Source of the DNA: Terriglobia bacterium
GTDB taxonomy: Bacteria > Acidobacteriota > Terriglobia > 20CM-2-55-15
Length of the DNA stretch: 64,000 bases
NCBI GenBank assembly: GCA_965263045.1
Contig: CBDHGK010000041.1
Location: 5,894,002-5,958,001, forward strand
Direction: 5' to 3'
Shown: positions 12,118 through 58,073 of the stretch, piece after piece
Layout of the letters: every line of letters starts with the position of its first letter
How positions within the stretch are numbered: the first letter of the stretch is position 1
The notes under the pieces: generated by a model
What the model saw: only the letters and a program-made list of their open reading frames with translations
Databases searched by the model: none
What the model was told of the DNA's origin: nothing
Position numbers and translations under genes: made by a program

Positions 12118-12427
12118 CAAATATCCCTCCGTCATTTGCACAATGACGTTCTTTGACGGTCGTTGTTTTGTTGTGTGTTCGAGGTTTCGGCAGCATATAC
12201 GACTGGGAGTCGGCTGTCCACAGGACTGGCTCTACACCGTGATGGGTGCCCTGTGACGCCCGGACTACGCAGCTCAAGCGCGAAGTTGTCACGATCCAAC
12301 TCTCCGCTCTGTGTCCCAGGACGCTCTTCTTATGGAAGACTGAACGCCACTAGTCCCTGAACAAGCGTGATTGATGAGGAATTGAAAGTGGAATAACCGC
12401 CGAAGTACCCGAAATGCCCCCTCTCCG

Positions 12428-14060
12428 TGCGAAAAAAACCTTGGACAGATTCTTTGGAGAAGGAGGCATTTCAGATGAACGATTATACGCGCAAGAACAT
12501 GAGGAACCGCAAGCGGCGAATTGAGCGTCGGCTTGGGGATCGGAATTGGAAAGATCAGGCGAAGCCGATGCTGTCGGCGCGCAACATCCGGTACGAGATG
12601 GGAGACCGGATGAGGGGTCTGTCGGTGGGCGGCATCGGAATGATGCATCAGGTGGCGCGGCGGACCGGACTGATCGAAGCCATCGACAAGGACGTGCATG
12701 TGCTGAAGCGGCATCTGCCCTACCAGGAATCGGATCACGTGTTGAACATCGCCTACAACGCGTTGAGTGGGGGCACGTGTATGGAAGATATCGAACTGCG
12801 GCGCAATGACGAAGTGTATCTGGACGCGTTGGGAGCACAGCGGATTCCGGATCCGACCACGGCGGGAGACTTCTGCCGGCGATTTGAGGAAGACGACGTG
12901 GAGTCGCTGATGGACACGTTCAATAAAGTGCGGCTGAAAGTCTGGCGCCAGCAGCCCGATGCGTTTTTCGAGGAAGCGGTTCTGGAGGCGGACGGGACAT
13001 TGGCCCCAACCACCGGAGAATGCAAAGACGGGATGGACGTGGCCTACGACGGGACATGGGGTTATCACCCACTGTTGATTTCGCTGGCGAACACGGCCGA
13101 ACCGTTATACCTGGTGAACCGGAGCGGCAACCGGCCCTCGCATGAGGGAGCGGCCAAACGGTTCGATCAGGCAATCGCGTTGTGCCAGCGTGCGGGGTTC
13201 GATCAGATCCTGCTGCGCGGGGACACCGACTTCAGCCAGACCCGGTATTTGGATGGATGGGACGACCAGGGCGTGGGCTTCATCTTCGGCATCGACGCGA
13301 TGAAAAACCTGGTGGCCCGGGCCGACCAATTGGAGCCGGACTGCTGGGCGCGCCTGGAACGTCCCGCCAAGTACGAGGTAGCCAGCCAACCCCGCCAGCG
13401 TCCCGACAAGGTCAAGGAACGGATCGTTCGGGAGCGTGACTTTGAGAATATCCGCTTGCGGGGCGAGGATGTGGCCGAGTTTGCGTATCGGCCCGGAGCC
13501 TGCGATCGGGACTACCGCGTCGTTGTGGTGCGAAAGAATCTGTCGGTGGCCAAAGGGGAGCAGGTGTTGTTCGACGACATCCGGTACTTCTTCTACATTA
13601 CCAACCGTGCGGATCCTGCGGACCAGATCGTGATGCGTGCGAATCAACGGTGCAATCAAGAGAATCTTATTGAGCAGCTCAAGAACGGCGTACACGCCTT
13701 GGGGATGCCGGTCGGGGATCAGACCAGCAACTGGGCCTACATGGTGATGGCCTCACTGGCCTGGACACTGAAGGCGTGGTTTGCGTTATTGCTGCCCGAA
13801 ACCGGACGTTGGGGCCAGAAGTATCAGGCCGAGAAGCAGACCGTGCTACGCATGGAGTTCAAAACGTTCCTGAACGCCTTCATGCTCGTGCCTTGCCAGC
13901 TCGTGCGTACTGGTCGGCGCATCGTCTTCCGGCTGATGGCCTGGAACCCGTGGTTGCCAGTCTTGTTTCGTGCCGTGGATGTGTTGCGTCAACCTCTGCG
14001 ATGCTGACCCGATCATGGATCTGAGCCCGGGCGGTCGAGGTCCCGGTTTCTTTCAACCCT
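12428..14060 (+). mobile_element. IS1380-family insertion sequence (~1.63 kb)
   Basis: A single DDE transposase ORF is flanked by imperfect inverted repeats: left GCGAAAAAAACCTTGGAC (~12430) and right GTCCCGGTTTCTTTCAAC (~14043, reverse complement GTTGAAAGAAACCGGGAC). Confidence 0.5.
12475..14007 (+). CDS. IS1380-family DDE transposase
   Basis: Family-typical blocks NALSGGTCMEDIE, YDGTWGYHPL and LLRGDTDFS. Strong SD (GGAGAAGGAGG) upstream of the ATG at 12475. Confidence 0.8.
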   Translation: MNDYTRKNMRNRKRRIERRLGDRNWKDQAKPMLSARNIRYEMGDRMRGLSVGGIGMMHQVARRTGLIEAIDKDVHVLKRHLPYQESDHVLNIAYNALSGGTCMEDIELRRNDEVYLDALGAQRIPDPTTAGDFCRRFEEDDVESLMDTFNKVRLKVWRQQPDAFFEEAVLEADGTLAPTTGECKDGMDVAYDGTWGYHPLLISLANTAEPLYLVNRSGNRPSHEGAAKRFDQAIALCQRAGFDQILLRGDTDFSQTRYLDGWDDQGVGFIFGIDAMKNLVARADQLEPDCWARLERPAKYEVASQPRQRPDKVKERIVRERDFENIRLRGEDVAEFAYRPGACDRDYRVVVVRKNLSVAKGEQVLFDDIRYFFYITNRADPADQIVMRANQRCNQENLIEQLKNGVHALGMPVGDQTSNWAYMVMASLAWTLKAWFALLLPETGRWGQKYQAEKQTVLRMEFKTFLNAFMLVPCQLVRTGRRIVFRLMAWNPWLPVLFRAVDVLRQPLRC

Positions 14061-14142
14061 TCAAACAGACACGGCGAGGCGGCAACTGAAACAGATACAA
14101 CACGAACCGCATACCTGGAAAAAGCGATCTGGGAACGGGAGC

Positions 14143-16167
14143 TTATGCCTCCAATTTTACGGCCGTGAACCGGCCGTTTGTCCACTGGTTATGCGCTTGT
14201 TTTGGGACTAGTTCGGCGGAGTGCAGGCTGTCCCCAATCGCAACGACGATGTATTGACGCGCTCCAACCATGTAGCTCACCGGCGGCGCGGTCGTGCCGG
14301 CCTCAAGCTCCCTCTCCCAGACAGTTGCCCCGGTTGCTTTATCGTAGGCGCGGAACATGTGCCCCCCGCTGTTGGTGACGATCTCGGGGGGCATCCCCGG
14401 CGGGACGCGTGGGTCATTGTCAAAATCAATGTTGGTTTGTCCTTCGCCGATGAATAAGAGCGTCTTCGTCAGCAGGGGCGAAGGTCGGCCCGGGCTGCCC
14501 AGAGGGCCTACATTCAGATGTGCAATCGCCGGGTGGTCACGCGGACCATCGCCGTTGGGCACCATCCAGACATGTTCCCCGGCGTTCATGTCGACCGCCG
14601 TAATCCTACCGTAGGGTGGTTTGAACAGAGGTAGTCCTCGCGGCCCGCCGATCCATTGTCGCATCCCTTTCACATAGCGAAGGTTTTGCCGTTCGGGATC
14701 GCCCTCCTGAATGTCGGCCACGAAAGGAGACGTAATCGATGGGATATATAGAATTCCCGTGTCGGGATCGAAGGCAGCGCCCTGGACGTCCGCTCCACCT
14801 TGAGAGCCGGGAAGCTGAATCGTCCCTAACGTGTCATTCGGGCCATCTCCGCGAACCGACGGTGGGGTGAACAGTGGGCCTGTGACGTAGCGTTCAGCGA
14901 TTTCAAGCGCTTCAGCGCGAAGCTCCGGTGTGAAATCGATCAGGTTTTCTTCAACGGAGCCCTGCAGGTCGAACGGTGGTGGCTTCGTCGGGAACGGTTG
15001 CGTCGGCGAAGTTTGCTCGCCCGGTGTAGTCGATGGGGGTGCTGGACGTTCTTCGATCGGCCACACCGGTTCACCTGTCGCGCGGTCAAAAACGAACGCA
15101 AATGCCTGTTTCGTGATCTGTGTGACCGCTTTGACCGCCTGGCCGTCCACGGTGATGTCCATCAGGATCGGGGCCGCCGGGAGGTCATAGTCCCACAAAC
15201 CGTGGTGGACCGTCTGATAATGCCAGACCCGCTCGCCGGTTTCCGCGTCCACCGCGACCAGGCTCTGTCCGAACAGGTTGTCGCCGATCCGGTGGCCCCC
15301 GTACATATCGTTGGTTGGCGATGACAGCGGCATGTATATGTAACCGAGTTCTTCGTCCGCACTGAAAAGTGACCACACCGGCACGTGGCCGGTGTAGGAC
15401 CACGATTCATCTTCCCAGGTGTCGGTACCGAACTCTCCTGCCTGGGGGATCGTGTGAAAGATCCAGCGCAGGTCGCCGGTCTCGACGTCGAAAGCGCGCA
15501 CGTCCCCGCGTATCGCCTCTTTGGTCGTGAACGTATCCGACATCGACTGTCCCACGACCACGACATCGCGCACCACCATGGGTGCGCCGCCCCAGACGTA
15601 GAATGCCCCTTCCGCCAGACCCGTCGTCAGATCGACCCGGCCCGCGTCGCCGAAATCAGGGTACAACTCTCCGGTCTCCGCATTGAGGGCGTACAGATAC
15701 CGGTCGCGCTGTACAAGGACTCTCGCGTCGGTTCCATCCGACCAGTACGCGACTCCACGAGTACTCGTTCCGAACAGATCATTGACCCCACCATAGGGTT
15801 CCTGAACCCAGATCGTCTCACCTGTTTCCGGGTCAAACGCCTCCACCAGACCGATCCCGTTCGGGATGAAGGCCATGCCATCAACCACCAGAGGCAGGGC
15901 CACATAATTGTTCGGGTAGAGCAGCGCCGGATTCATGTCCAGGTAGTGAGCGTCGACCCCCGGACGGCGCCACGCCACCTGTAGGTCGTCGACGTTGGTT
16001 GCATCGATCGTGTCCAGTGGAGTGTACTTCGTGCTGCCGGAGTCGCCGCCAAAGGCACGCCACTCGCCACCGGCCGCGCCCAGTTGCGCCTGAAGCGAGG
16101 GAACCAGCAGCAGCGAACCCATCAGTGCATGAGTCAAGAACAGGAACAACCTTGCCGGCGCGTTCAT
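14143..16167 (-). CDS. PQQ-dependent dehydrogenase, methanol/ethanol family (secreted quinoprotein)
   Basis: Signal peptide, then W-motif propeller repeats and a VWHYQTVHHGLWDYD active-site block. Confidence 0.8.
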   Translation of the reverse strand: MNAPARLFLFLTHALMGSLLLVPSLQAQLGAAGGEWRAFGGDSGSTKYTPLDTIDATNVDDLQVAWRRPGVDAHYLDMNPALLYPNNYVALPLVVDGMAFIPNGIGLVEAFDPETGETIWVQEPYGGVNDLFGTSTRGVAYWSDGTDARVLVQRDRYLYALNAETGELYPDFGDAGRVDLTTGLAEGAFYVWGGAPMVVRDVVVVGQSMSDTFTTKEAIRGDVRAFDVETGDLRWIFHTIPQAGEFGTDTWEDESWSYTGHVPVWSLFSADEELGYIYMPLSSPTNDMYGGHRIGDNLFGQSLVAVDAETGERVWHYQTVHHGLWDYDLPAAPILMDITVDGQAVKAVTQITKQAFAFVFDRATGEPVWPIEERPAPPSTTPGEQTSPTQPFPTKPPPFDLQGSVEENLIDFTPELRAEALEIAERYVTGPLFTPPSVRGDGPNDTLGTIQLPGSQGGADVQGAAFDPDTGILYIPSITSPFVADIQEGDPERQNLRYVKGMRQWIGGPRGLPLFKPPYGRITAVDMNAGEHVWMVPNGDGPRDHPAIAHLNVGPLGSPGRPSPLLTKTLLFIGEGQTNIDFDNDPRVPPGMPPEIVTNSGGHMFRAYDKATGATVWERELEAGTTAPPVSYMVGARQYIVVAIGDSLHSAELVPKQAHNQWTNGRFTAVKLEA

Positions 16168-16222
16168 CAGTCAATCCTCCCGTGTCGGAACGCCAGAATC
16201 AATCGAGAGTCAGTGGGCGTTT

Positions 16223-16505
16223 GAGGGATGCTAGCAGCCCGTGGCATAAGTCTCAAGGGCCGCGTTACGGCCAAACGGGGCCGGATTCTAGGAGGCGACG
16301 ACGCTGCAATGCTCATTCATTGCGAGGAGTCGGCGACAACGAAGACGGCCCCGTATCGCCGTAACCCTATGGGCGCAGGGGGGTTCGGGCCACAGGCTTT
16401 GTCCCTCGTCGGTCACGATGAAAAGACATCGTTCCGCTCCTCACTTCGCGCCTGCAACACGAAGACCCCTCCGCGCGGCCCTTGAGACTTATGCCACGGG
16501 CTGCT
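16223..16505. repeat. Perfect 32-bp inverted repeats (16223-16254 and 16474-16505) flanking a 219-bp core
   Basis: AGCAGCCCGTGGCATAAGTCTCAAGGGCCGCG and its exact reverse complement, read directly from the sequence. It lies in the divergent intergenic region between the two PQQ dehydrogenase genes. Confidence 0.85.
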
Positions 16506-16939
16506 GGGGCTAGTTTTGAGCCATGTCAAAGGAATAACTATTCGCAAACGAGAATCTTCGCGGACGGGCTGGAAGAACGGAGACAACGGGTGCAGCAGCG
16601 GCACGCGATCTCTGTTTAGAATTCCGAATCCGGCAATGCGCGCATGAGCGGTCAACGTTTAATAGCGGGCCCTATGTTTTCCATGAGATTCCGCTTCGCG
16701 CGCCGGGTAGAATTGCGTGATCAACCATTTGGACCTGATTCGGAACTCCGATCCAGGTCGCACGTGCTGTGGTCCCGAACTGCACGATCGTTGACTCCAC
16801 AGTAGTGCTCATTTTTCTCTTCCCGTCCCGGAAGCCTATTTGAGTAGAATAGCGGGTGAATTCTAAAAACGTTTCGGTCCAGTCCGGGTCATGGGCCGTC
16901 CCGACCCGAAGAAAAGCGGTCGACCCTTGGGGGATAGAG

Positions 16940-19012
16940 ATGAAAAATAAGGACAAACGGTGGCAGCGGTCGGTGACATTCAAGTGGCTCATTGCGGCAC
17001 TCGGCATGCTGGTTATTGCGCCAACAGCGGTCTTGTCCCAGGGACCGGGAGTCGAGAACGGGCAGTGGTCCTACATCGGCGGGGACGCCTGGCACACACG
17101 CTACACCCAGGCGAGTGAGATCAATTCCTCCAACTTCGAAAACATGGAGGTCGTCTGGGAGTGGAACGCGGCGAGTTTCGGCTCAAGTACCCCGCGGTCA
17201 ACACCCACCTACGTCGACGGTAAGTTGATCACGGTCACCGGCGAGCGTCGGCATATCGTGGCTCTAGATCCCGAAACGGGAGAGCTTCTCTGGAGTTATT
17301 CTGAGCCGATGACCGCGCGCTACGAGTACTCCATGCGAAAGGGTTACGGAAAAGGGATCGCGTACGGTGAGATCGACGGCCGCGGCGTCGTATTTCTAGC
17401 GACACCCGCATTTTTCCTCCACGCCATCGATGCCGAGACCGGCCTGCACCTTGAAAACTGGGGCACGAGGATAGGGCTGGAGGGCTTCCCGGAGACGGGC
17501 GTCGTGGATCTGCTGCCACCCCTTATCGCGGATTGGGACCGGTGGCTGGAATCCGGCGAAGAGTACGATCCTTATTACGGAATCCCCCTGGAGCTGGGCT
17601 ACATCACGGCATCGTCCCCGCCCATTGTTGTGAATGGCACCGTCGTCGTGGGGAACTCCGCGGAGCAGGGGTACAACCAGACCCGCATCGAGAACGTTCC
17701 CGGCGACATCCTCGCGTTCGATGCGCGGACCGGCCAGTACAAGTGGAAGTTCCACGTCATCCCGCGACCGGGTGAGTTGGGACACGAGACGTGGGAGAAC
17801 GATGCCTGGCAGTGGACGGGCGATGTCTCGTCCTGGGCGCCGCTATCCGCCGATCCGGAGCTCGGGTTGGTCTACGTTCCGACGAATGGTCCCACCATCG
17901 ATTACTATGGCGGGTTCCATCCCGGGGATAACTTATTCGGCACGAGTCTGATCGCTCTCGATGTCGAGACCGGTAACCGGGCCTGGCATTACCAACTGGT
18001 TCACCACGACATTTGGAACTACGACACCCCGACGGCGCCAATACTGATGGACGTGACGGTCGACGGGGATGAGATCCCCGGCGTCTTTCAGGTCACCAAA
18101 CAGTCGTTCGTTTACGCTTTCAACCGGGAGACCGGTGAGCCGATCTGGCCCATCGAAGAACGGCCCGTACCGCAATCCCGGGTACCCGGTGAGCAGCTCT
18201 CTGCAACGCAACCGTTTCCGACCCGACCGGCGCCGTTCGACATCCAGGGGAGAACTGAGGAACACCTCATCGACTTTACGCCCGAGATTAAACGCAGGGC
18301 GATGGAAGTGGCGCTCGAGAACAACCTGTTCGTCCCCCTGTTCAGCCCGCCGACCCATGTCGGCGACCCGGAACTGGTGGTGCCGGCCCGGGCGTGTCCG
18401 GGCGGGGGCGGCGGCGCGAACATTACCGGACCGCCTGTCGCCGATCCGGTGGCGGGCGTAATCTTCATCAACTCGCAAAGCGCATGCACCACGATCCATC
18501 TCGCACCGGCGTCGGACTCTCCATTGGACGGACCCGCGCAGACGGGGACCAACCACTCCGACTACTCGAGAGCGATCGACGTGGAAGCCCCGCCCAGAAC
18601 GGAGACCCTGGATGGGCTCTCAATCTGGAGGGGACCGGTCGGGCGGATCACGGCGATCGATATGAATACAGGGGAACACCTCTGGGTGGTCCCGCACGGG
18701 GATGCGCCTCGAGAGCAACAGGAGCTGATCCGGAATCACCCGTTGCTCCAGGGGATCGAGGGTGTTCCGGCGAATCCCGGCCGCCTCGGCCAGGCCGCTA
18801 TGTTGACGACGCCGACGCTGCTGCTTGCTTCAGGTCAGACCAGCGATGGCGCGCCGCACCTGTTCGCAATCGACAAGCAGACCGGTGAGCGTGTCGGGGC
18901 TGTGGAGATACCGGACGTTTCGCGGTACGGCATGTCGAGTTGGGTCCACGAAGGACGCCAGTACGTCATCGTTCAGCTCGAAGACGGTCTGGCGGCGATG
19001 GCGTTGCGCTGA
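16940..19012 (+). CDS. PQQ-dependent dehydrogenase, methanol/ethanol family (paralogue of 14143..16167)
   Basis: Signal peptide from MKNKDKRW..., AWHYQLVHHDIWNYD block and the same domain order as the divergent neighbour. Confidence 0.8.
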   Translation: MKNKDKRWQRSVTFKWLIAALGMLVIAPTAVLSQGPGVENGQWSYIGGDAWHTRYTQASEINSSNFENMEVVWEWNAASFGSSTPRSTPTYVDGKLITVTGERRHIVALDPETGELLWSYSEPMTARYEYSMRKGYGKGIAYGEIDGRGVVFLATPAFFLHAIDAETGLHLENWGTRIGLEGFPETGVVDLLPPLIADWDRWLESGEEYDPYYGIPLELGYITASSPPIVVNGTVVVGNSAEQGYNQTRIENVPGDILAFDARTGQYKWKFHVIPRPGELGHETWENDAWQWTGDVSSWAPLSADPELGLVYVPTNGPTIDYYGGFHPGDNLFGTSLIALDVETGNRAWHYQLVHHDIWNYDTPTAPILMDVTVDGDEIPGVFQVTKQSFVYAFNRETGEPIWPIEERPVPQSRVPGEQLSATQPFPTRPAPFDIQGRTEEHLIDFTPEIKRRAMEVALENNLFVPLFSPPTHVGDPELVVPARACPGGGGGANITGPPVADPVAGVIFINSQSACTTIHLAPASDSPLDGPAQTGTNHSDYSRAIDVEAPPRTETLDGLSIWRGPVGRITAIDMNTGEHLWVVPHGDAPREQQELIRNHPLLQGIEGVPANPGRLGQAAMLTTPTLLLASGQTSDGAPHLFAIDKQTGERVGAVEIPDVSRYGMSSWVHEGRQYVIVQLEDGLAAMALR

Positions 19013-22035: not shown

Positions 22036-22270
22036 CTATGTCGGTGTGCGAAGACCGTTCGGCGCGAAAGCGGTCCACGTTCTGGTCCAGGGTGCCAATT
22101 GAACTTTCACGAAGTTGGCATAGACTGCGTAGAGCGCAACCATCCACTTGTGATTCTCGAACTTCTTCCTGAATCCCTTGGTCAGGCGAGTGAACCAACG
22201 CATGTGCATGCGCATGGTGAGGTTCTGGCGGTCTACATGTGACCTTGAAATTTGCTTGGGATCCGAGCTT
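22036..22270 (-). pseudogene. C-terminal remnant of an IS transposase (resembles the IS1595/ISXO2-like C-terminus)
   Basis: ...MRMHMRWFTRLTKGFRKKFENHKWMVALYAVYANFVKVQLAPWTRTWTAFAPNGL matches the conserved transposase C-terminal tail. Nothing transposase-like lies upstream of it. It sits in a lower-GC patch. Confidence 0.4.
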
Positions 22271-40101: not shown

Positions 40102-40220
40102 TCACTCGGGTTCGTTCGTGGGCGATTGTTCTCGGTTAGAAGTGGATTGCTTGTTGGTTTCTTGATGGTTCGAAGAGATTATCTTATTCCTCTAAACGCC
40201 TCGGCCGCCGCCTCGTTGTT

Positions 40221-40355
40221 CACCCGCACCGTGGGACCGGTGCGGGTAATTTTGGGGGACTGCTTTAACCTTTCCTCAATCCCTATAGGCCCCGCCATCA
40301 CGATGATGGCGGGGGTCGCCGATCGTTCAGACAGGATGTCTGAAAGAACGATCGA
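40221..40355 (-). ncRNA. Copy 1 of a conserved three-hairpin structured element (candidate cis-regulatory leader RNA). Strand is inferred.
   Basis: H1 CCCGCACCG-TGGGAC-CGGTGCGGG, H2 CCCGCCATCA-CGA-TGATGGCGGG, H3 CGATCGTTC...GAACGATCG with an inner hairpin. Lies 119 nt upstream of the GT4 start on the minus strand. Confidence 0.5.
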
Positions 40356-42937: not shown

Positions 42938-43108
42938 AGCCGAAACAGTATAGCGAATTGTTGGATGGGTGGGATGAGGGTTTGGGGGGCATGGTGCCGG
43001 GCGTTGGAGATGGTAGTGCATCGGTTCTAGATTGCAGGTGATATCCGAATGAATCCATCAACTTATTACCCTGACGCCTCAGCTCCGCCGCTTTAATATG
43101 AAAGCCGT

Positions 43109-43271
43109 CCACCCGCACCGTGGGACCGGTGCGGGTTCTATTGGGAGGGAACCAGGAATTCCGTCGTTCCTTATAGGTCTTGCCATCATGATGATGGCGA
43201 GGGTCGCTGGTCGTTCGGACCACGCGTGGCACGTGTGCCACGCGACAAAGATGGTCATCCGAAAGAACGAC
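43109..43271 (-). ncRNA. Copy 2 of the conserved three-hairpin structured element
   Basis: H1 is identical (27 nt). H2 is CTTGCCATCA-TGA-TGATGGCGAG, with compensatory changes relative to copy 1. H3 has a conserved outer stem and a different, larger inner hairpin. Lies 87 nt upstream of the LuxE-like ORF. Confidence 0.5.
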
Positions 43272-57734: not shown

Positions 57735-58073
57735 CTATCGGCCGAGCAGAGCTGCGACGATGGAGAGCAGGATGGCGACCTGAATGCTGACCAACCAGTG
57801 GAACTGACGGGCGACTTCCTGGCGAAACAGGTCTGCCTTCTGGTCCAGGGCGTCGATTCGAGAACCCAATTCTTCGCGAAAGCGATCCAATTTCTGGTCC
57901 AGAGCGTCGATCCGAGAACTCAAATCTCCGCGAAAGCGATCCATCTTTTGATTCACGGAATCGACTCTCCCATTTAAGTGGAGCAGAAGTTCTCGAATCT
58001 CTCCAAATCCCCGGGAGTGTTCGTCCAACTTGCCTTCCAAGAAAGCCACCCTTTCCTCTAAAGATGGAGGCAT
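57735..58073 (-). CDS. Coiled-coil protein with C-terminal TM anchor and 18-aa tandem repeats
   Basis: DRFRGDLSSRIDALDQKL / DRFREELGSRIDALDQKA repeats, encoded by a 54-bp tandem repeat (~57840-57950). C-terminal hydrophobic helix. Confidence 0.5.
   Translation of the reverse strand: MPPSLEERVAFLEGKLDEHSRGFGEIRELLLHLNGRVDSVNQKMDRFRGDLSSRIDALDQKLDRFREELGSRIDALDQKADLFRQEVARQFHWLVSIQVAILLSIVAALLGR

Follow-up and report, generated by a model that had tools for sequence, protein, structure and literature searches.

What is a long and perfect inverted repeat doing between two divergently oriented PQQ dehydrogenase genes? The 64-kb window (the whole stretch of 64,000 nucleotides analyzed here) contains a single long perfect inverted repeat, a 32-nt sequence (AGCAGCCCGTGGCATAAGTCTCAAGGGCCGCG) with arms at 16233-16264 (+) and 16474-16505 (-). 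A repeat match of this kind arises in 0 of 100 dinucleotide-preserving shuffles, and the 32-mer has no third occurrence in the window when up to three mismatches are allowed. The original prediction gave the repeat sequence and the right arm correctly, but placed the left arm at 16223-16254; as a result of this 10-bp error its 219-bp spacer and ~283-bp unit should read 209 nt and 273 bp. Its location of the repeat between PQQ dehydrogenase paralogues is borne out by the Pfam matches and the orientation of both flanking genes, whose products are 37% identical. Several readings had been offered for the repeat, among them a recent MITE-like insertion, a long-range hairpin, a recombination site and an operator for both genes. 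We conclude, with a probability of about 90%, that the perfect-arm unit is a 269-bp MITE copy moved by an IS5/IS1182-like IS, i.e. ordinary selfish DNA.

The boundaries of the element differ slightly from those of the repeat. At the outer edges of the 32-nt arms, 2 nt (AG on one side, CT on the other) derive from the CTAG target duplication; since CTAG is itself palindromic, each apparent arm is lengthened by 2 nt, and 32 nt are seen instead of 30. Coordinates of the element, its parts and the flanking genes are collected in Table 1. The family profile described below matches the window once (nhmmer, 16232-16505, E=2e-83), and the window copy represents the compact form of the family. Its arms differ from the consensus TIR at three positions (G>T, C>T and G>A), each mirrored in the other arm. 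The same variant is present at one end of P0141, a second copy on the source contig, and a third copy there, P0137, is of the consensus type. The variant in common with P0141 indicates that the mirrored changes are a subfamily trait rather than a sign of very recent insertion, and the decay of the target duplication (CTAG/CTGG) argues likewise. A target-site duplication had been suggested as a check on the insertion; it is found at three of four positions and lost at the fourth, and the description of the insertion as recent is therefore not clearly supported.

Table 1. Positions of the MITE copy, its parts and neighboring features in the 64-kb window
Feature	Position	Strand	Basis or remark
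PQQ dehydrogenase 1 (left gene)	14143-16167	-	PF01011 E=1.6e-174
Candidate hybrid promoter toward left PQQ dehydrogenase	16228-16256	-	Consensus scan only
85-codon ORF through element, spurious	16228-16485	+	Even codon-position spread
Left target-site duplication, CTAG	16231-16234	.	4-bp model
MITE core, 269 bp, non-coding, non-autonomous	16235-16503	+ (family orientation)	Boundaries from 4-bp duplication model
Left TIR, 30 nt, CAGCCCGTGGCATAAGTCTCAAGGGCCGCG, presumed transposase binding site	16235-16264	+	Three derived bases (T, T, A), mirrored in right arm
Internal hairpin arm 1 of three-way junction	16264-16365	+	Fold helices 2-5
Internal hairpin arm 2 of three-way junction	16373-16473	+	Fold helices 7-10
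Right TIR, exact reverse complement of left TIR	16474-16503	-	31/31 under G...C definition
Right target-site duplication, decayed to CTGG, 3/4 matching	16504-16507	.	4-bp model
PQQ dehydrogenase 2 (right gene)	~16940-19012	+	PF01011 E=2e-148

A search for further copies, which the original prediction had proposed, finds at least two more on the source contig and others on related contigs. The query was a protein made by translating the unit in six frames and concatenating the stop-free peptides. Seven called 'proteins' read through element copies, two of them (P0137 and P0141) on the source contig and five on other contigs. Together with the window copy, this gives at least three copies on the 6,469,549-bp source contig, where the window's own proteins (P0001) are also recorded, a lower bound that derives from gene calls that happen to overlap copies. 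DNA copies are evident at unrelated loci, namely L002, L004 (two), L008, L009, L010 (two), L011, L012 (three) and L013 (two). At least 12 copies are present in related metagenome contigs, whose host lineage is probably Acidobacteriota, at a density of 2-3 copies per 7-21 kb locus. Two tandem copies lie between lpxI and an oxidoreductase gene in L004-L007, one copy lies within a LigT/ThpR gene of L010, a locus that also has an older copy, and one lies within an S8 peptidase gene of L011; three copies are found in L012 and two in L013. The single copy in L002 (L002:8120-8501), a locus retrieved independently via a dehydrogenase homologue, lies directly 3′ of the 80%-identical orthologue of the window's left PQQ dehydrogenase, in a locus otherwise unlike that of the window. 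The proximity of this MITE to the same dehydrogenase family is probably a coincidence.

Ten copies, the window copy and nine others, align well (alignment A1), with TIRs of 30-31 nt and a conserved interior. Independent copies from other samples and assemblers (JGI and ENA contigs) are 84-92% identical to the interior of the window copy. Length variation is restricted to helix tips, where three optional modules are found, including 24-nt tandem repeats. These repeats occupy the tip of the first inner hairpin at L011:1880-1950, L012:10220-10300 and L013:10290-10630, reaching ~14 units in L013; other family members carry two optional hairpin extensions, and lengths across the family range from 269 to 666 bp. 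We also note an older lineage (L004:4408-4683 and L010:2453-2723) that retains the core and a 32/207-209/32 architecture with quite different arms. Its interior is better conserved than its TIRs, which is unusual for a MITE.

Alignment A1, or alternatively the pattern CAGCCCGTGGCAKAAGTCYCRAGGGCCGCG with mismatches allowed, can serve as a profile of the family. A scan with the conserved-core pattern added two JGI contigs and matched no viral contig. With the 85-codon ORF that crosses the element as query, an exhaustive HMMER search returned 78 cluster representatives at E<=1e-3, 38 of them at E<=1e-10, most being short orphan ORFs; the element is thus common in public assemblies, where gene callers frequently mistake it for a gene. 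Scans for the exact 19-mer TIR core found a chance match in a Microbulbifer coding region among species-representative genomes and nothing among JGI metagenome contigs; the window's TIR variant is too specific for exact words. The plasmid collection contained no match to the element.

How the element inserts can be read from its flanks. The dinucleotide TA adjoins 16 of 20 element ends, compared with a background TA frequency of 2.5%. A TA duplication of the IS630/mariner type was considered and rejected because the outer positions co-vary, as in L020 (TTAG/TTAG), L011 (CTAA/CTAA) and L012a (CTAT/CTAT). With a 4-bp duplication the MITE copies L004A (CTAG/CTAG), L011 (CTAA/CTAA) and L012a (CTAT/CTAT) agree at all four positions, and most other copies, including the one in the window, agree at three. 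The family core then has the termini CAGCCCGTGG...CCACGGGCTG.

A comparison of filled and empty sites is provided by the LigT/ThpR gene of L010. Removing the element and one duplication from this gene yields a 184-aa protein whose residues 1-181 align without a gap to PDB 1vdx (PH0099, LigT-like, 184 residues). The reconstructed protein matches Pfam LigT_PEase contiguously over profile positions 3-87; with the element left in the gene, only positions 25-87 are matched, after the insert. Removal of the element from the glyoxalase gene of L012 (a contig at 2x coverage) does not restore the frame. For the window locus there is no orthologous empty site among the homologues found, the nearest dehydrogenase homologues being only 80% identical and not syntenic. 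We note that the intragenic copies at L010:4071-4381 (LigT/ThpR) and L011:1816-2224 (S8 peptidase), also on contigs at 2x coverage, are called as in-frame fusions.

The transposase that moves a non-coding element must come from elsewhere, and a candidate partner was identified through L012, where a degenerate IS with ends resembling the MITE TIR adjoins a MITE copy. The two lie back to back at one CTAT site in a glyoxalase-family gene (CTAT-IS-CTAT-MITE-CTAT; L012:2447-4304), an arrangement that points to two successive insertions into the same tetranucleotide. The transposase reconstructed from this degenerate IS, used as a query, retrieves a large family of 435-475-aa proteins with DUF772 and DDE_Tnp_1 domains. 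One of these, P0279 (467 aa; PF05598 and PF01609), is encoded by an IS with ten genomic copies of 1,487 bp (one of 1,503 bp). The left end of this IS is CAGCCCGTGGTTAAAGTCC... and the right end is ...ACTTCTGCCACGGGCTG. In reverse complement, the right end is identical to the consensus MITE TIR at 18 of 18 positions, counting the flanking G, and the left end agrees at 17 of 20; the outer 17 nt of the consensus-subfamily TIR are those of the end of the autonomous IS. Perfect 4-bp duplications flank all ten copies (CTAG in nine and TTAG in one), and the degenerate IS of L012, a related eleventh copy, has a perfect CTAT duplication.

The partner has both the DDE_Tnp_1 transposase and the 4-bp YTAR duplication that mark the IS5 family. 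Among NCBIfam models the best match of P0279 is IS1182 (NF033551), at 168 bits against a cut-off of 270, and the IS5 models score 89 bits against a cut-off of 140; with both scores below cut-off, we describe the partner as IS1182-like or IS5-superfamily only, and this assignment is approximate. The ends of IS5 have no known relation to the TIR sequence CAGCCCGTGG... of the present family. None of the 120 matches listed for the partner transposase lies on the source contig. The sole transposase gene in the 64-kb window belongs to an IS1380-family element next to the left dehydrogenase, unrelated to the MITE; this element was considered as the partner and rejected because its inverted repeats (ACTAGTCCCTGAACAAGCG) bear no relation to the MITE TIR. 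Both kinds of end occur within one genome in a 62-bp chimeric mini-element, in which a MITE-type left TIR is joined directly to an IS-type right end (L015:2693-2752, flanks CTAG/CTAA), located 90 bp from a full copy of the IS.

The properties by which MITEs are generally recognized can all be found in this family: (i) a length of roughly 50-700 bp (269 bp for the window core and 269-666 bp for its relatives); (ii) TIRs, perfect over 30 nt in the window and 27-30/31 in other copies; (iii) flanking target-site duplications; (iv) multiple dispersed copies per genome; (v) neither a transposase nor coding capacity; (vi) TIRs in common with an autonomous IS and (vii) evidence of insertion, from the filled and reconstructed empty site in the LigT gene of L010. 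The MITE-like insertion first suggested for the locus is thereby confirmed by further copies with target-site duplications.

In our model, a DDE transposase supplied in trans by the ~1.49-kb IS5-superfamily (IS1182-like) IS would recognize the 30-bp TIRs, which have the same termini as the IS (5′-CAGCCCGTGG...), insert the element at a YTAR tetranucleotide, mostly CTAG, and duplicate that target. The window copy would have inserted between the two dehydrogenase genes, at a distance of 67 bp from the start of the left one. The arms may have been kept perfect since both must fit one transposase, and selection on the hairpin or correction by template switching may also have contributed to their identity. 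For the older lineage, where the architecture is retained and the arms have changed, the ten sequences available contain hints of selection on the fold or of arm correction by template switching. At its present location the element could be either neutral or the donor of a hybrid promoter to the left gene, and a read-through transcript, if any, would be expected to form a very stable hairpin.

Two important questions to address for this interpretation are (i) whether the conserved interior encodes a product and (ii) whether it is conserved as a structure. For the first question, a small protein appeared plausible at the outset, as the frame through the element stays open in 8 of the 11 copies, whose lengths are often multiples of three. 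This candidate was rejected for lack of a third-position bias: variable alignment columns are distributed 23/22/27 over the three codon positions, a spread that indicates an open frame without selection at the protein level and hence a spurious ORF. The ORF also has no Pfam match.

For the second question, the predicted folding energy of the unit is about -170 kcal/mol for each strand (z about -11); the arms pair as an outer stem that encloses two inner hairpins. RNAalifold applied to the family (alignment A1, n=10) predicts a three-way junction. The first hairpin arm contains the best-conserved core of the family, ACAACGAAGAC..CCGT.TCGCC. Standard pairs account for 96.5% of the cells of the alignment, and compensatory (two-sided) changes are seen in 25 of 86 pairs, compared with 1-7 in slid controls; none of 500 shuffles reaches the observed values. 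Most compensatory pairs fall in the outer helix, i.e. the TIRs, where they are also expected from the transposase requirement that both TIRs share, and a few fall in inner helices 2, 3, 7 and 8. The long-range hairpin of the original prediction is thus borne out only insofar as the element is able to fold and this fold is conserved across the family.

The interior equals the TIRs in conservation and contains compensatory pairs, which is not required of purely selfish DNA and counts against our main reading. The dispersed element might instead function as a structured module of RNA or single-stranded DNA, with transposition merely the means of its spread, acting as a transcript stabilizer, terminator, insulator, RNase III target or small RNA. 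This proposal is compatible with a MITE and draws on the very stable fold of both strands, the pairing and compensation statistics, the presence of some compensatory pairs in inner helices that are not transposase sites, the confinement of length variation to helix tips and the architecture and core that the older lineage (L004B and L010b) preserves despite its differing arms. We nevertheless consider it unlikely. The covariation comes mostly from one divergent sequence among only ten, neither strand folds better than the other, as is to be expected of palindromic DNA, and Rfam contains no relevant match at E<=10 for the window region or at E<=1 for five loci with copies. The occurrence of copies in either orientation and within ORFs further argues against a dedicated transcription unit.

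The ends of the element may have consequences for the neighboring gene. The start codon of the left PQQ dehydrogenase lies 67 bp from the element core, with GGGAGG upstream of the ATG. A scan for consensus matches, which assumes that sigma-70 rules apply in this phylum, identifies a candidate promoter directed toward this gene, in which TTGAGA in the TIR would serve as the -35 box and TGcTAGCAT, after a spacer of 17 nt, as an extended -10 that spans the junction between the element and its flank. The predicted transcription start lies near 16221, which is 54 nt before the left ATG and ahead of the GGGAGG ribosome-binding site. Judged from these motifs, the TIR -35 and junction -10 could drive the left gene. 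TTGAGA faces outward at both ends of the element and is due to the TIR changes of the window subfamily, the corresponding consensus TIR sequence being TCGGGA. A more ambitious combination, in which the interior is a functional RNA cargo of the transposon and the ends of the window subfamily are portable outward promoters that rewire neighbors such as the PQQ dehydrogenase, has in our view only a small chance of being correct.

For the right gene, the ORF opens at 16856 and the probable start is at 16940 (MKNKDKRW..., with a signal peptide), ~436 bp from the element. The consensus scan finds no usable -10 box at the right end of the element. Given this result and the distance to the right gene, the joint control of both dehydrogenases that had been envisaged is unsupported.

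A location between divergent genes, and perfect inverted repeats around a short segment, would also be expected of an inverton in which a recombinase flips the 209-bp segment and directs a promoter toward one dehydrogenase or the other; repeated inversion would likewise keep the arms identical. This arrangement is very improbable here. No serine or tyrosine recombinase is present among the ~40 large ORFs of the 64-kb window, which also leaves the suggested recombination site without support, the consensus scan detects no inward-facing promoter in the interior, and copies of the unit, which has an IS partner and is flanked by 4-bp target duplications, are scattered over many unrelated loci, some of them in coding genes. 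We regard a long palindromic operator, or operator pair, for a regulator of both PQQ dehydrogenases as no more credible. Such a role is suggested by the divergent intergenic location, but other copies adjoin unrelated genes (lpxI, LigT, S8 peptidase and glyoxalase) and P0002, the 80%-identical homologue in L002, has no copy upstream, the single copy of that locus being downstream. The original prediction held that further copies with target-site duplications would rule out an operator, and such copies exist. An assembly artefact, for example a fold-back chimera at a palindrome, is the least probable explanation of all, for although long-read or amplification errors can yield perfect palindromic arms, the interior is not palindromic overall and closely resembles copies from other samples and assemblers.

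The MITE reading can be placed among known systems. IS5 is reported to generate a 4-bp target duplication of the YTAR type (PMC5009759), and genes downstream of an IS5 insertion can acquire a fusion promoter from it (PMC11894529). The partner IS resembles IS5/IS1182 elements in its DUF772 and DDE_Tnp_1 domains and in its YTAR-type duplications (CTAG, TTAG, CTAT and CTAA). As a derivative of such an IS, the present MITE has the termini of the IS and not its interior, and it differs from IS5/IS1182 systems in its long TIR (30 nt) and highly structured interior. In Neisseria, the ends of CREE/NEMIS elements provide outward promoters, and hairpins in their transcripts are processed by RNase III (PMC2649163, PMC5039591). 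Like CREE, the present MITE is small, multicopy and intergenic, with long TIRs and a TA-containing target, and in both cases the ends can create outward promoters (a candidate here) and transcripts can form hairpins (predicted here). The two have no sequence similarity, however, and CREE is roughly 100-155 bp with a TA duplication, whereas the present MITE is 269-666 bp with a 4-bp YTAR duplication and, unlike CREE, has an identifiable autonomous partner.

Rickettsia palindromic elements (RPE) are palindromic and mobile; they occur in-frame in protein-coding genes, and the element itself is crossed by an ORF (PMC10969869). The in-frame copies in the LigT gene of L010 and the S8 peptidase gene of L011 are reminiscent of this behavior. 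Unlike RPE, the present copies are mostly intergenic, their substitutions have no codon-position bias and their hosts and sequences are different. Invertons of the fimS and Bacteroides types are similar in being short segments bounded by inverted repeats upstream of genes; the MITE differs from them in being dispersed and multicopy, with target duplications, an IS partner and no recombinase in the 64-kb window.

Elements of this kind are well known, and what is new here is a MITE family and its IS partner from a poorly studied, probably acidobacterial lineage. Both appear to be uncatalogued, with no Rfam match and no description found in the literature. Only its structured interior, and the promoter that it may carry from site to site, go beyond the routine. 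For annotation, the result removes the spurious 85-codon ORF together with dozens of similar 'hypothetical proteins' called from copies of the element.

Mobile DNA is present on both sides of the left PQQ dehydrogenase gene: the MITE lies in its promoter region, and the IS1380 element extends into its 3′ end. Compared with its orthologues, this gene may therefore be expressed differently and encode a different C-terminus. The IS1380-family IS extends over 12349-14212, with a transposase gene at 12427-14007 (+; NF033539, E=6e-83) and inverted repeats at 12349-12367 and 14194-14212, and overlaps the 3′ end of the dehydrogenase ORF. Homology of the left dehydrogenase to its paralogues and orthologues ends near residue 653, which indicates that the last ~22 codons and the stop are IS sequence. 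A cluster of homologous dehydrogenases has a named member from an Acidobacteria MAG, and the ORFs of the window, which include an ADOP-type permease, CarboxypepD_reg, PEP-CTERM and a Ser/Thr kinase, fit an acidobacterial content.

Several minor features were observed elsewhere in the window. A 46-codon ORF (MSTTVESTIVQFGTT...; 16672-16811, -), preceded by GGGAAGAG, lies between the MITE and the right dehydrogenase gene, where the intergenic DNA is lower in GC, and an imperfect inverted repeat of 15 nt is found at 16619-16633/16734-16748. Two copies (90% identical) of a 39-nt REP-like hairpin repeat, GTyCACCCGCACCGTGGGACCGGTGCGGGT..., flank an aldehyde dehydrogenase/AMP-binding gene pair (40218-40256 and 43107-43145). 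Finally, two 54-nt units that are 78% identical lie in tandem at 57816-57923, and a weaker third copy is found 36 kb away at 22058-22111.
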